From assembly GCA_041548485.1 (NCBI GenBank), contig JBFESP010000002.1, forward strand, positions 10,632 through 74,631: 64,000 bases of DNA, written 5' to 3'. This document shows, one piece after another, positions 40,033 to 55,541 of this stretch. Position numbers and translations under genes: made by a program. Numbering within the stretch: the first letter of the stretch is position 1; every line of letters starts with the position of its first letter. The stretch comes from Thermoplasmata archaeon (GTDB taxonomy: Archaea; Thermoplasmatota; Thermoplasmata; UBA10834). The notes under the pieces are model-generated. The model worked only from the letters and a program-made list of their open reading frames with translations. It was not told the origin of the DNA and did not search any database.

Positions 40033-40641
40033 CTATCCCTTTTTCTGCCTGCCTCTCGGGATTGCGATGATCTCTCGGACTTCCATGTTGAAGAACGAAT
40101 TCGCGTGCGCGGGCCTGACCACGCAGGCAGTATCGGCCCCTTCCCCGGTGCCTCCGATGACAGCAACCTCGAAATTGCCACACGGAATCGCCCCATTATC
40201 CGCTGCCATGACCGCCACCTCCACACACACCTTCAGTCCCTGCCCGAACAGCGATCTGAGCGCTTCGGATATCGCCTCGACCCGAGATGACCCGCCAAGC
40301 TTACGGGTCACTGATCGCTCCAAACCTGAGAGGGCGTGAGAAGACCTCACGACCCTGGCTCCTGACTGTGTGAGCCTCTCATAGGTCTTGTCATCCATAT
40401 CCACGACGCCCTCTCCGGAGAATCCTGCGTGGGAAGTGACGACCACAATCCGGACATCTGAGCCAGCGAATCTAGACAGAACCTTGAAGGCGGTCTCGCC
40501 GGAATTACTTGCCACGACGACGTGTCCTATTCCTGTTCGTCTCAAACATCGCCCCACAGCATCGAGAACCGCGTCCGTGTTCTCCTTGCCAGGCCGATCG
40601 AAATAGACTACCTCCGATACAGCCATGTCATCCCGGACCAT
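40033..40641 (-). CDS. pyruvate kinase C-terminal (alpha/beta) domain-like protein
   Basis: VVASNSGETAFKVLSRFAGSDVRIVVVT resembles the PK_C motif (T.SG.TA..VS.YRP...I.A.T). The ORF-track N-terminal extension (to 40968) is implausible, so the start is set at the MVRDDM Met. Confidence 0.4.
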   Translation of the reverse strand: MVRDDMAVSEVVYFDRPGKENTDAVLDAVGRCLRRTGIGHVVVASNSGETAFKVLSRFAGSDVRIVVVTSHAGFSGEGVVDMDDKTYERLTQSGARVVRSSHALSGLERSVTRKLGGSSRVEAISEALRSLFGQGLKVCVEVAVMAADNGAIPCGNFEVAVIGGTGEGADTACVVRPAHANSFFNMEVREIIAIPRGRQKKG

Positions 40642-40665
40642 AAAATGTGGTACCCCTAAATAAAA

Positions 40666-41739
40666 ATGTCGCCAGGAACGATTCGGCAAGACTCGGAAAG
40701 CATTATTTACGCTTATCAGGTTCAAGGGGACGTGGCGATCTTCTTCAACGAGGAGTTCTGTAATCACGTTCAGAGCCCGTTCCATCCGGAGTCTCCCGAG
40801 AGATTGAAGGGCATAGTCCAGAAGCTGAAGCACCACGGATTGTGGGAAGACGTAATCCGCTCGGAAGCGGGAAATGCAGAGCATCTCAAACTCATCCATG
40901 ATGAGGATTACGTGGACTTCATCCGCACGTGCGGCGAATGCAACATCACCATGGACACATCCGTCCACAGCGATACCTACGCTATTGCAGCCCTGTCAGC
41001 CGAATGTGCGATTGACGCGGTGGCACACTCGAAGAAGAAGGAAGAGCCGTCGTTCGCCTTGACGAGACCTCCAGGTCATCACGCGGGTGCGAACTATGGT
41101 ATGGGGTTCTGCTACTTCAACAACATAGCAGTAGCTGCCGCCCATCTGCTAGACCGGGGGGACAAGAGGATTGCGATTATCGATTCCGATGTACACCACG
41201 GAAACGGCACGGAACAGGTGTTCGCAGGGAGATCGGATGTGCTATACATCTCAATACATCAGACGGGCATCTTCCCGGGAACGGGGAGCGTTGACTTCCT
41301 TGGGAAGGGCGACGGAGAAGGGTTCACAATCAACTTGCCACTGGACTCGGGCTGCGGGGATTCGACATACGACCACTTCTACTCCGATATCGTCCTACCA
41401 GTCGTCCAGCAGTTCTCACCAGACGCAATCCTCGTCAGCTTAGGAGTCGATTGCCATTACAGGGATCCGCTCGCATCCATGAGCCTATCGTCTATAGGTC
41501 ACGTGAGAGGAGCGATGGAGCTGGTGCGCCTTTCTGAGTCTTGCGCGAAGAGGCTGACTTTCTTCCTTGAAGGTGGATACGACGTACCCGCTCTCTCGGA
41601 GGTGGTGACCGGCGTCGTCGGTGTCCTCAGGGGGGTGGACATCCCCCTGGAGTTCAGGGAAGTGCTGGACAACAGCTGCCTAGGACGCATCGCCATCGAA
41701 CGATGCAGGACGAATGCCTCCGAACACTGGGACCTATGA
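40666..41739 (+). CDS. histone deacetylase / acetoin utilisation (AcuC)-family deacetylase
   Basis: RPPGHHA, DSDVHHGNGTE, GGGY-type (FLEGGYD) motifs of class I/II arginase-fold deacetylases. Confidence 0.8.
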   Translation: MSPGTIRQDSESIIYAYQVQGDVAIFFNEEFCNHVQSPFHPESPERLKGIVQKLKHHGLWEDVIRSEAGNAEHLKLIHDEDYVDFIRTCGECNITMDTSVHSDTYAIAALSAECAIDAVAHSKKKEEPSFALTRPPGHHAGANYGMGFCYFNNIAVAAAHLLDRGDKRIAIIDSDVHHGNGTEQVFAGRSDVLYISIHQTGIFPGTGSVDFLGKGDGEGFTINLPLDSGCGDSTYDHFYSDIVLPVVQQFSPDAILVSLGVDCHYRDPLASMSLSSIGHVRGAMELVRLSESCAKRLTFFLEGGYDVPALSEVVTGVVGVLRGVDIPLEFREVLDNSCLGRIAIERCRTNASEHWDL

Positions 41740-42891
41740 GCTCGGTTTTCTCCTCCTAGCGTCCAGGCGTTTCTCGCGCTCCTTTCTGATGTTCTTCTCC
41801 ATCATGTCGAGAGCGGTATCCAGCGACCGGTACAGATCCCAATCACTGGCCTTTGAGTAGTACATCCCACTGTCGGTGGTCAGCCTAGCGCCGAGGCTGG
41901 ATTTGGTCTTAAGGCCGCCCTGATGGTAGGACGTCACGTGGACGGAGAAAACCTTCGGTGGCTCCATCTTGTCAATCCTCTTCATCGACCTGCCGATGAG
42001 ATCGTACATGATCTCGTAGACCTCGGGATCCTCCGCATCGAGGCCTGTGATCTGTACATAGACACCCTCCTGAGGCCTGAGGCTGATAATCTGCTCCATG
42101 ATGTCGGTATGCGATACAACGCCGACCAGTTTCATCTCATCAGCGACGAACAGTGTAGAGAGATTCTTCGAGAGCATAATGGAGACGACTCTGTCGAGAG
42201 TGTCGGTGGGAGACACGGAAACGGGGTGCGTGTTCATGACGCTGCCCACCCTCACATCCGCGGGCTCTCTGTCCCCCCTGACCTCGTTCGGTGGTTTCGA
42301 TGCTCTCGGAGACCAGACGACCTCCAATATCTCCGTCATCCCAATCGCTCCGATGAGCAGATTCTGATCTGCGACAACCGGAAGCGTCTTCTCATTCAAA
42401 CTCTTCATGAGAATCTGGGCATTCCTCACAGGTTCGTTCTCAGCGACCGTGACGGGAGCCGTGCTCATTATCGACCCCGCCGTTCTGCGTCTCAGCTCGT
42501 CCATTTTGGACATTACCCGAATGATGTCGGTCCGCGACAGGAATCCCACGAGCTTGTGGTTCCTCACCACCGGGGCTCCCCTCACACCAGTCGACATAAG
42601 CTCCTCAGCGGCGCTCACGATGGTCATGTCTTCTTCCAGCTTTGGGCAGGGGACCATTATGTGCTCGACCTTTGCGGTGAGAGGCAAGTTCCGCCTCGAC
42701 AACAGAGAGTAGTAGCTCACAAGCCCGAGCGGCTTTTCGTCCTCGATGACTGGAATCTCCCTGACGCGCTCCTTCTTCATTCTAGATATGACTTCGGATA
42801 CCGTCTCGCCCTTGCTAACGGTCACACGAGGCGTGCTCATGACATCCTTCACGAGAAGCTTGCTGATCTCAGTTGCCTTCAATTTGAACAC
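41734..42891 (-). CDS. CBS-domain protein (four CBS motifs) with a C-terminal HPF/RaiA (ribosome hibernation factor)-like domain
   Basis: Four CBS repeats (VKDVMSTPRVTV..., VEHIMVPCPKL..., AGSIMSTAPVTV..., VGSVMNTHPVSV...). The C-terminal about 90 aa (VFSVHVTSYHQGGLKTKSSLGARLTTDSGMYYSKASDWDLYRSLDTALDMMEKNIRKEREKRL) aligns by eye to YfiA/HPF (VHV..h...a.l.v.g....a.a...DmYaAID.l.dKLeRQLrKhKeK). Confidence 0.6.
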   Translation of the reverse strand: MFKLKATEISKLLVKDVMSTPRVTVSKGETVSEVISRMKKERVREIPVIEDEKPLGLVSYYSLLSRRNLPLTAKVEHIMVPCPKLEEDMTIVSAAEELMSTGVRGAPVVRNHKLVGFLSRTDIIRVMSKMDELRRRTAGSIMSTAPVTVAENEPVRNAQILMKSLNEKTLPVVADQNLLIGAIGMTEILEVVWSPRASKPPNEVRGDREPADVRVGSVMNTHPVSVSPTDTLDRVVSIMLSKNLSTLFVADEMKLVGVVSHTDIMEQIISLRPQEGVYVQITGLDAEDPEVYEIMYDLIGRSMKRIDKMEPPKVFSVHVTSYHQGGLKTKSSLGARLTTDSGMYYSKASDWDLYRSLDTALDMMEKNIRKEREKRLDARRRKPSS

Positions 42892-43174
42892 TTCCTAGCA
42901 ATACGAGGCGTGGAAAACACATCTGGGTTTCATGCCTAGTCATAGCAATCAGACTCCCCCATCTAAATACTTTCTGTGCTGCATCCATTGCTGATAATTT
43001 CGTCAATGATTTATAGCCTCGACCCAATCCGGTAGAACGAGGTCGCCGTATAGTCTCGTCACGGACGGGTTTAGGGCATGGGGGGCTGGGATTACGAACG
43101 ACAAGTCAGCGAGTGCAGGCAGGAGAGTTGGTCCAGGGGAGGACGATGGAGGGACATCCCCACAGGGACCTCCC

Positions 43175-44395
43175 CTTGAATTCCTGACGCTGGATGATTT
43201 TGACGTAAAAGGCAAGCGGGTCCTCCTGAGGGTGGACATCAACTCGCCTGTCGACGAGCGCACATTGAAGGTTGAGGACGGGTCGAAAATCGCTTCCGCC
43301 GTTCCGACGTTGAGGGAGCTGATTGACCGCGGAGCCAGGTTGGTGGTTCTTGCACATCAAGGACGACCAGGCGACTACGACTTCATAACGCTGAACGAAC
43401 ATGCTGACTGGCTGAGCAGGTACTCTGGTAAGAAGGTGAGGTATATCAACGACACATTCGGACCCCATGCGAAGAAGGCCATCGATTCCTTGGGGGAAGG
43501 AGAGTGCGTCCTACTGCAGAATGTAAGGAATTTCTCGGGGGAGCAGCTCAAACTCACGCCTGAGGAGCACGCGCAGTCTCCCATGGTGAAGGCCCTTGCC
43601 CCCAAGTTCGACCTGTTTGTGAATGATGCGTTCGCATCCGCTCACAGATCGCACGCGTCCCTCCTGGGGTTCACGACCGTTCTGCCTTCCGCCGTCGGGA
43701 GGCTGATGGAGAAAGAAGTGAGGGCCATGTTCGAAATCCTCCGAACCCCTTCAAGACCGGCCACGTTTGTGTTCGGCGGCACCAAGTTCGCGGACGCCCT
43801 TCCGGTCATAAGGAGGCTGGCTGAATCCGACCGTGTGGACCACGTGCTCATCGCAGGTCTGGCTGGCTACACCTGCCAGTGGATCATGGGTCACAGGATA
43901 GGCTCTGGTACGGAGAAACTCGCGCGCCGAGACGTCACGGATAAGATCAGAGAAGCCGCGAGGGTTCTAATAAACGACCATGGTGACAAGATCGCCTTGC
44001 CGGTCGACTGTGCCGTCGAGGAGGGCGGAAAACGAATTGAATATCCTCTCGATGACCTGCCGGAGGAGGCGGCGATACTCGATATTGGCTCTGTGACGAT
44101 TGAGAGGTTCAAGGCCGTTGTCGAGCTGTCGAAGACCGTGTTCCTGTCCGGCCCGCCAGGCGTATACGAGCGGGAGGGGTTCGCCACTGGCACACGCGAA
44201 CTGTTCGAAGCCATAGCTTCGTCGGGAGCATATTCCGTCATCGGAGGGGGGCATTCTGGTGCGGCGGCGCATCAGCTCGGCATGAGCGAGCGGTTCTCCT
44301 ACATCAGCACCGGAGGTGGGGCGATAGAACGCATGATACTCGGCAAGAGTATGCCAGTCATCGAAGCTCTGAAGGCCTCTGCGAATCGAGGTTAG
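43175..44395 (+). CDS. pgk: phosphoglycerate kinase
   Basis: LTLDDFDVKGKRVLLRVDINSPV N-terminal signature, plus later conserved motifs. The canonical N-terminus lies upstream of the ORF-track GTG (43232); the likely start is the TTG at 43175 (M/L-EFLTLDDFDV). Confidence 0.85.
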   Translation, partial: LEFLTLDDFDVKGKRVLLRVDINSPVDERTLKVEDGSKIASAVPTLRELIDRGARLVVLAHQGRPGDYDFITLNEHADWLSRYSGKKVRYINDTFGPHAKKAIDSLGEGECVLLQNVRNFSGEQLKLTPEEHAQSPMVKALAPKFDLFVNDAFASAHRSHASLLGFTTVLPSAVGRLMEKEVRAMFEILRTPSRPATFVFGGTKFADALPVIRRLAESDRVDHVLIAGLAGYTCQWIMGHRIGSGTEKLARRDVTDKIREAARVLINDHGDKIALPVDCAVEEGGKRIEYPLDDLPEEAAILDIGSVTIERFKAVVELSKTVFLSGPPGVYEREGFATGTRELFEAIASSGAYSVIGGGHSGAAAHQLGMSERFSYISTGGGAIERMILGKSMPVIEALKASANRG

Positions 44396-45030
44396 CTGTA
44401 CGGAAAGCTCTTCTTTCCGCCGCCTCCGAGGATGGTGCCTCCGAGAGACCTGGCCCTGACGAGCCCCCTCAACGGCACACTGTCAATTTCATTCAGGCTG
44501 CCCTTGTTGACCAGTACGAGTGTGAGGACGGGCACCCCACCGGCTTCCTTGATGTCGGTTATCGCTCCCTTGATCGTGGCACCAGTACTCAGCACGTCAT
44601 CCACGATGATGATCTTCTTGCCGTTGCCGACCGAGGCGTAGTTCGAGCTGAAGGCGCCCCCGCTCTGACTCTCCGCATGGGGCCTGTACACACCGAGGTC
44701 GATGCCGAGGACCTCGGACAGCTTCGCGGCAAACGGTATACCGTTTATGGACACACCGAGCACAACCTCCGCATCCTGGTCCTGCTTGCCAAGTTCTTCG
44801 AGGGCTATGTCGGCCATCAGCTCGGCCATCAATCCAATTCTGTATCCCGAGACCCCCACAGACCTCCATCCTATCTTCACGTCGGACGGTGGAAGGCCTT
44901 CCGGACCGTATTCCACGAGATAATTGACAGTGTCAATGGAAAGGTGCAGTTCATCCGCTACATCGCGGACGCTCAGGCCTTTCTTCCTTAGCATCTTGGC
45001 ATTTGCTGCCAGCTCTTTAACGTCTACCAT
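44392..45030 (-). CDS. GfcR-like regulator: N-terminal HTH fused to an orotate/PRPP phosphoribosyltransferase-like domain
   Basis: HTH (LSVRDVADELHLSIDTVNYLV) followed by the PRTase fold (KKIIIVDDVLSTGATIKGAI PRPP-binding motif). Confidence 0.7.
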   Translation of the reverse strand: MVDVKELAANAKMLRKKGLSVRDVADELHLSIDTVNYLVEYGPEGLPPSDVKIGWRSVGVSGYRIGLMAELMADIALEELGKQDQDAEVVLGVSINGIPFAAKLSEVLGIDLGVYRPHAESQSGGAFSSNYASVGNGKKIIIVDDVLSTGATIKGAITDIKEAGGVPVLTLVLVNKGSLNEIDSVPLRGLVRARSLGGTILGGGGKKSFPYS

Positions 45031-55465: not shown

Positions 55466-55541
55466 TGGTGGGCCCGTCGCGATTTGAACGCGAGTTACCA
55501 GCACCCCAAGCTGGAAGGATACCAAGCTACCCCACGGGCCC
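55466..55541 (-). tRNA. tRNA-Pro (anticodon GGG), with encoded 3' CCA
   Basis: Reverse complement GGGCCCGTGGGGTAGC...CCAGC-TTGGGGT-GCTGG...TCGCGTTCAAATCGCGA-CGGGCCC-A-CCA. Immediately downstream of rpoN on the same strand. Confidence 0.85.

Follow-up and report, generated by a model that had tools for sequence, protein, structure and literature searches.

The locus considered here raises the question of why an archaeon should encode a protein that appears to join four CBS domains to a ribosome-hibernation domain, and to which family such a protein belongs. It lies in a 64,000-nucleotide (64-kb) stretch of contig JBFESP010000002.1 from an uncultured Thermoplasmata archaeon, called the window below, in which an open reading frame (ORF) occupies positions 41734..42891 of the minus strand and encodes 385 aa. 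A preliminary description, made from the letters alone, had placed the gene at exactly these coordinates and had read the product as a four-CBS protein with an HPF/RaiA-like tail that would couple adenylate sensing to ribosome binding; it had called the fusion unexpected in an archaeon, and had proposed a Pfam search, a structure prediction and a survey of the fusion among archaea as checks. We find that the gene very probably encodes an archaeal ribosome hibernation factor of the HibA/AHA type, with the function assigned by homology. The ORF is complete and, judged from the ORF call and the orthologue N-termini, real. It starts with GTG, an in-frame TAG stands two codons before it (ORF list, start context), and its stop codon is at 41734-41736; in an alignment of 35 sequences, which also served as input for the AlphaFold2 model, 34 orthologues align from the same start position, many of them with ATG there. 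Current databases label this gene 'CBS domain-containing protein', 'AcuB' or 'transcriptional regulator'.

The C-terminal HPF/RaiA-like (Ribosomal_S30AE) domain, delimited from sequence profiles, models, Foldseek matches and a conserved R-h-x-T-D-x-G motif, covers approximately residues 276-381 (41749..42066, minus strand). This is about 105 aa rather than the 90 aa first given, the β1-α1 unit having been left unaligned by eye. The Pfam profile Ribosomal_S30AE (PF02482) matches residues 299-375 at E 1.1e-4 with a score of 23.3 bits, just below the gathering cut-off of 23.7 bits, and precomputed Pfam annotation gives CBS domains only for most orthologues; both points would suit a generic CBS regulatory protein whose C-terminal part is a helix or linker that goes with CBS domains and has no relation to HPF/RaiA. 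When family members were scanned one by one, however, PF02482 was matched by 32 of 35 at E < 0.01 (best 5e-7), and PDB searches with the tail alone yield almost exclusively HPF-type proteins. With the single 112-aa tail as phmmer query, the top three matches are HPF/protein Y of Thermus thermophilus (E ~1e-4), followed by further HPFs, and 9 of the 12 chains found with a 20-sequence tail profile are of the HPF/RaiA/YfiA type. HMMER pairs DWDLYRSLDTALDMMEKNIRK with DADLYAAIDRAVDRLETQVKR, which reproduces the register 'DMY.AID...DKL.RQL.K' that the preliminary description had set by eye.

AlphaFold2 modelled the full protein with a mean predicted local distance difference test score (pLDDT) of 81.5 and a predicted template-modelling score (pTM) of 0.75. 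Because Foldseek results for this model are dominated by CBS tetrads, the tail was also modelled alone (pLDDT 87.1). The tail model is composed of a β-strand (278-282), an α-helix (289-307), three further strands (312-325, 328-339 and 343-350) and a long terminal helix (353-381). Foldseek comparison of this model with the PDB returned ribosome-bound HPF/RaiA/YfiA/pY hibernation factors, from chloroplasts and bacteria, at every one of ranks 1-38 (best E 3e-7, template-modelling score (TM) 0.72-0.74, root-mean-square deviation ~2.5 Å), while the first unrelated match follows at E 7e-3 and TM 0.37. Taken together, the sequence and structural evidence for an HPF-like tail is far beyond chance. The orthologue S30AE scan, the tail model and the tail Foldseek search effectively refute the generic CBS protein, to which we assign next to no probability; a CBS-associated helix with no S30AE match, the outcome that the preliminary description had set against its own proposal, was not what emerged, since the profile is matched and the HPF fold is modelled.

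PDB searches with the whole protein point to one family. The best sequence match is 9SR9_H (392 aa), with residues 14-381 of the window protein aligned to residues 6-381 in one alignment at E 1.2e-17; a profile of the clade finds the same chain at E 1.4e-26 (13-382 against 5-382), and BLASTP reports 23% identity over 384 alignment columns (E 1e-19). In both the single-sequence and the profile searches 9SR9_H ranks ahead of the Sri proteins, and only two PDB matches, 9SR9_H and 9L96, reach the tail, of which 9SR9_H alone is aligned end to end. The chain was deposited as 'Dehydrogenase'; a database search identifies it as a Pyrococcus abyssi protein (P0121, 100% identity), and 9SR9 belongs to a set of entries in which HibA of P. 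abyssi was solved on the 70S ribosome by cryo-EM (PMC13324472). Chain a of PDB 9L96 (also 9L98, 9L9C and 9L9V) is a 406-aa 'CBS domain-containing protein' that itself has four CBS domains and an HPF-like tail, and it matches CBS4 and the tail of the window protein at E 3.4e-11; a literature search for PDB 9L96 found no paper citing the entries.

The fusion of four CBS domains with an HPF domain is already known from publications that cover its architecture, its mechanism and how widely it occurs. Madru et al. (Nat Commun 2026) describe HibA as a four-CBS module (1-269), a 'PTC loop' (190-207) at the peptidyl transferase centre (PTC) and a C-terminal HPF/RaiA-fold domain (270-387) with two archaeal-specific insertions; the loop wraps the universally conserved A2602-equivalent adenine, and the HPF domain sits in the 30S mRNA/tRNA channel (PMC13324472). 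Souza et al. (bioRxiv 2026) independently described the same protein as AHA in Haloferax volcanii, with two AMP molecules between CBS3 and CBS4, a 'loop 3' in the PTC and a longer terminal helix of the HPF domain (PMC12934967). Cryo-EM and genetics show that HibA/AHA silences and protects 70S ribosomes, with the HPF domain in the same 30S site as bacterial HPF (PMC13324472, PMC12934967); HibA inhibits translation in vitro, and its deletion in Thermococcus barophilus leads to loss of 70S and delayed recovery (PMC13324472). In H. volcanii, too, the knock-out affects recovery from stationary phase and entails ribosome loss. The P. abyssi protein binds nucleotides in the order AMP > ADP > ATP (PMC13324472), with no clear nucleotide effect on ribosome binding shown so far for HibA. 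HibA is present in 47% of archaeal genomes by one count (PMC13324472) and in 42% of archaeal species by another (PMC13454478), so that the fusion can no longer be called unexpected in an archaeon. Its origin has been ascribed to early transfer from Bacteria (PMC13324472) or to vertical inheritance from the last universal common ancestor (PMC12934967); the bacterial derivation that the preliminary description had considered possible corresponds to the first of these views. The proposed coupling of adenylate sensing to ribosome binding by such a fusion agrees with the profiles, the model and the distribution reported here, and by analogy with HibA/AHA (PMC13324472, PMC12934967) would hold for the window protein as well.

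Both HibA's loop and its C-terminal end appear to have counterparts in the window protein. The extended loop after CBS3 (residues 193-213, WSPRASKPPNEVRGDREPADV; 42253..42315, minus strand) aligns with residues ~188-207 of P. abyssi HibA, with corresponding length and position, and is therefore by alignment the putative counterpart of the HibA 'PTC loop' and AHA 'loop 3'. Residues 196-208 have pLDDT < 50 in the AlphaFold2 model, and in the orthologue alignment the loop equals the folded domains in conservation (mean column identity 0.76), with W193, P201 and G206 invariant; low model confidence together with strong conservation is the pattern expected of a loop that would take on order only when bound to a partner. 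The C-terminal 20 residues (366-385, KNIRKEREKRLDARRRKPSS; 41737..41796, minus strand) are strongly basic, with a net charge of +7 and an isoelectric point of 11.7, and are compatible with the position that this end has in P. abyssi, at the exit channel for mRNA, a role suggested here by analogy.

The N-terminal four-CBS module is also well defined. Pfam finds four CBS stretches in the product (E 1.5e-43), and the full-length model shows four β-α-β-β-α CBS units, as the preliminary description had supposed. CBS1 (residues ~14-65, 42697..42852, minus strand; boundaries approximate, from Pfam and the model secondary structure) has a degenerate ribose-binding motif, read from sequence as GLVSYYS, that lacks the Asp. 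CBS2 (~75-127, 42511..42669, minus strand) carries the canonical G-h-h-S-x-x-D motif as GFLSRTD, in which S119, R120 and D122 are invariant across the clade. In CBS3 (~138-192, 42316..42480, minus strand) the motif reads GAIGMTE, with Glu replacing Asp, and in CBS4 (~214-270, 42082..42252, minus strand; best Pfam CBS stretch 215-268) it is again canonical, GVVSHTD, with D263 invariant; CBS2 and CBS3 were delimited from Pfam, alignment and model. Across the four domains, the ribose-binding motif G-h-h-S/T-x-x-D is thus complete in CBS2 and CBS4, altered to Glu in CBS3 and missing from CBS1. The canonical, invariant motif of CBS4 and the GMTE of CBS3 are no more than suggestive of adenine-nucleotide binding at the CBS3/CBS4 interface. 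Among PDB structures, CBS tetrads dominate the Foldseek results for the full model, the best being SriA on the Methanosarcina acetivorans ribosome (9znf_4, E 4e-21, target TM 0.83), followed by MJ1225, Dri and AMPK-gamma. That SriA is the best structural match of the tetrad is consistent with published trees, in which HibA is derived from a SriA-like (CM-5) ancestor.

The CBS module also gives grounds for a different proposal, that a CBS-tetrad protein with an HPF-fold domain serves a non-ribosomal role, as a transcription regulator of the HhpR/CM-3 type, as a metabolic protein related to AcuB or IMP dehydrogenase (IMPDH), or as an AMPK-gamma-like regulator of an enzyme. It draws on partial CBS-level NCBIfam matches to HhpR, IMPDH, CcpN and PrdR, on relatives named 'acetoin utilization protein AcuB', 'predicted transcriptional regulator', 'dehydrogenase' or 'IMP dehydrogenase', and on the structural resemblance of the tetrad to AMPK-gamma. 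Two published observations could be read in the same way: a variant GNAT acetyltransferase was purified together with the H. volcanii orthologue (PMC12607858), and in pull-downs HibA of Thermococcales was accompanied by proteins of replication and recombination (PMC13324472). The NCBIfam scores nonetheless lie far under their cut-offs (HhpR 47.8 against 520, IMPDH 60.7 against 481.5, CcpN 51.5 against 260) and come from the CBS repeats only, and the protein is without a catalytic or DNA-binding domain. Moreover, its best full-length relative is the ribosome-bound HibA, and conservation extends to the PTC-type loop as well as to the HPF domain, which leaves a non-ribosomal role very unlikely. 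The NCBIfam names PrdR, IMPDH, CcpN, HhpR and DS11 antiphage were all rejected for the protein, the matches being far below cut-off and limited to CBS repeats.

Several observations weigh against assignment of the protein to HibA/AHA. The 23% identity to the characterised HibA is low, and the experimental data for the family come from P. abyssi, T. barophilus and H. volcanii only. The S30AE score of this single sequence, 0.4 bits under the gathering cut-off, is borderline. In tail-only HMMER searches of the PDB, with the single sequence or the 20-sequence profile, the P. abyssi HibA tail was not reached at E <= 1 and the 9L96 tail was not recovered; 9SR* and 9L96 chains are likewise absent among the Foldseek PDB matches listed for the full and tail models. 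Comparison of Thermoplasmata and Thermococcales tails by hhalign, from very shallow alignments, gave E 6.5e-4 and a probability of 27% over 53 columns of β3-β4-α2. The Asp-type ribose-binding motifs, as read from alignments, are in CBS1, CBS3 and CBS4 of P. abyssi HibA and in CBS2 and CBS4 of the window protein, so that ligand sites and stoichiometry may differ between the two and the ligand logic of this clade could be a different one.

Since the tail-only and profile-profile comparisons are weak, the link of the tail to HibA rests on the end-to-end alignment, a shared motif and the common HPF fold. The motif, R-h-x-T-D-x-G-h-aromatic, is common to the window protein, P. abyssi HibA (9SR9) and 9L96_a, and is invariant within the clade (R336-T339, orthologue alignment). 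We claim tail-to-tail sequence homology with archaeal HibA no further than this motif, which supports the relationship. With these points counted, the HibA/AHA assignment is retained at the strength given at the outset.

The distribution of the protein adds to this picture. Identity to the closest proteins is 91-93%, and every relative with a name stems from a metagenome-assembled genome of Thermoplasmata/Thermoplasmatota, the nearest species representative being 'Thermoplasmata archaeon SG225.bin4' (92%). A full-length copy is present in ~35 species-representative genomes of Thermoplasmata, down to 48% identity, while the bacterial matches in the same scan cover CBS repeats only. Automatic annotation by JGI names several relatives 'CBS domain-containing protein/ribosome-associated translation inhibitor RaiA'. 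No second CBS-tetrad (Sri-like) gene was found within the 64-kb window, in line with the anticorrelation that has been reported between hibA and sri genes.

The domain architecture, the HPF fold, the conserved loop and the end-to-end match to HibA observed here would, by homology to the proteins of P. abyssi and H. volcanii, predict the following mode of action. In stationary phase or under stress, the C-terminal HPF/RaiA-like domain would occupy the 30S mRNA/tRNA channel over the A and P sites, with the basic C-terminal end directed to the mRNA exit channel. The N-terminal four-CBS disc would dock on the 50S subunit, placing the conserved loop after CBS3 in position to enter the peptidyl transferase centre. 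The two tethered domains would in this way hold the idle 70S ribosome together, block translation and shield functional rRNA sites from degradation. The CBS tetrad is expected to bind adenine nucleotides, in P. abyssi with the preference cited above, and would probably tie engagement or release to energy status.

The gene is flanked by a divergent and a convergent neighbour. On the side of its start lies pgk, for phosphoglycerate kinase (43078..44395, plus strand; PF00162, E 1.3e-103), correctly named as a divergent neighbour in the preliminary description, and on the other side a gene of the HDAC (histone deacetylase) family (40666..41739, plus strand; PF00850, E 1.7e-81), the 3' end of which overlaps the hibA 3' end by 6 nt. 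The arrangement pgk/hibA/deacetylase is found in 34 of 35 Thermoplasmata species-representative loci, and the remaining locus, truncated towards pgk, still has the deacetylase. The wider neighbourhood is syntenic in the clade as well, with genes for radical SAM, PanE, phosphoribosyltransferase, PGK, HibA, HDAC, PK_C, M24 peptidase and Asp dehydrogenase, including in the relatives L001 and L002.

This neighbour suggests a further possibility, that in this clade a HibA family member is additionally controlled by reversible lysine acetylation, with the convergent HDAC-family protein as the deacetylase. The overlap of the two genes and the retention of the deacetylase in Thermoplasmata loci down to 48% HibA identity would fit it, as would the report that K311/K313 of H. 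volcanii HVO_2384 (AHA) carry acetyl groups and that the protein was purified together with an inactive Pat2 acetyltransferase (PMC12607858). Energy state would then be read twice, as AMP/ATP through the CBS tetrad and as acetyl-CoA through acetylation. Pat2 failed, however, to acetylate HVO_2384 in vitro (PMC12607858), the convergent genes are not co-transcribed, and no deacetylase was found near hibA in the Thermococcales loci of P. abyssi and T. kodakarensis. Because the whole block is syntenic in the clade and the Thermococcales loci differ, the adjacency reflects lineage synteny, carries no specific signal and was rejected as evidence of a functional link; we consider such acetylation control improbable to a high degree.

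A few further observations concern the surrounding sequence. The probable ATG of pgk at 43078 is out of the coding frame: the frame contains no ATG, GTG or TTG between the upstream stop (~43007) and GTG 43232, a codon within the conserved 'RVD' motif, and relatives start ~45 codons upstream of LTLDDF with 'MGA(G/R)(I/M)TN'. The window ATG (43078-43080) runs into six G residues (43080-43085) and sits one base out of frame; in the close relative L004 an ATG followed by five G residues is in frame, and L003 starts at a different ATG, five codons further on. This 5' anomaly stems from an error of assembly in the homopolymer, from a genuine frameshift or from the use of a non-canonical start. Downstream of pgk, a 212-aa phosphoribosyltransferase-domain protein is encoded at 44392-45030 on the minus strand with a 4-nt overlap with the pgk stop, and belongs in relatives to the same conserved block as hibA. 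On the other side, a mechanically called 311-aa ORF at 40033-40968 (minus strand), the 5' part of which overlaps the deacetylase gene, matches the pyruvate-kinase C-terminal α/β domain (PK_C) from residue 132 only, and its real start is probably internal, the L001 orthologue being called at 213 aa. ARAGORN predicts a tRNA-Pro(GGG) at 55466-55541 (minus strand) that is missed by the Rfam scan at gathering thresholds, although the three remaining tRNAs in the window are recovered by it. Nothing relevant came out of the Rfam and tandem-repeat scans.

For the window the practical value of these results is one of annotation, in that the gene should be named hibA. The biology added is only a divergent, uncharacterised clade of a known family, through which at least 35 uncultured Thermoplasmata species would use the HibA route. 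From raw sequence, the preliminary description had recognised the architecture of what three groups reported in 2025-2026 to be a major system of ribosome hibernation in archaea, in which the universal HPF module is linked to an energy sensor resembling AMPK-gamma.

The window protein can finally be compared with the systems that share its parts. Bacterial and plastid HPF/RaiA proteins (YfiA, protein Y, pY; PF02482) share the fold, topology and detectable sequence similarity of the tail. They are chains of 90-105 aa that are free-standing or carry a long-HPF dimerisation domain, whereas in the window protein the domain follows 275 residues of CBS tetrad, only 4 residues extend beyond the last helix, the β2-β3 hairpin and the terminal helix are longer in the tail model, and a 100S-type dimerisation domain is lacking. 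It is accordingly neither a stand-alone nor a long bacterial HPF, in which the HPF domain is N-terminal or the sole domain rather than C-terminal.

SriA (M. acetivorans, PDB 9ZNF) is the closest structural match of the CBS tetrad and is also matched by profile (E 2.1e-23), but the stand-alone CBS-tetrad factors Sri (SriA, SriB-D), ARC (ARC-A/P) and Dri are without an HPF domain; in addition, Dri has two tetrads (655 aa), and sri genes are clustered, in contrast to the one CBS-tetrad gene of the 64-kb window. The presence of the HPF tail and of no other CBS-tetrad ORF in the window sets the protein apart from the SriA type. AMPK gamma and MJ1225 resemble it in their four-CBS disc fold (TM ~0.55-0.57 normalised to the query) and in the expected adenylate binding, but have neither an HPF domain nor a PTC-type loop, and a kinase rather than the ribosome is regulated. 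For HhpR (CM-3), IMP dehydrogenase and AcuB the resemblance ends at the CBS repeats, below the curated NCBIfam cut-offs (HhpR, IMPDH), and neither a catalytic nor an ACT domain is present.

The closest correspondence is with HibA itself (P. abyssi PAB0961, Thermococcus TK1186; PDB 9SR9-9SRF and 9T7H) and with AHA (H. volcanii HVO_2384). The proteins are of one length class (385 against 392 aa) and share the order of their parts: four CBS domains, with an extended loop behind CBS3, come first, and the HPF/RaiA-fold domain, which closes with a long helix and a basic C-terminal end, comes last. The differences lie in the low identity to the P. abyssi protein, in a tail whose similarity to that of Pyrococcus is barely detectable alone, and in the distribution of CBS motifs and the gene context. 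On sequence grounds, the window protein is very probably a divergent member of the HibA/AHA family, with the family's defining parts as far as sequence can assess them.

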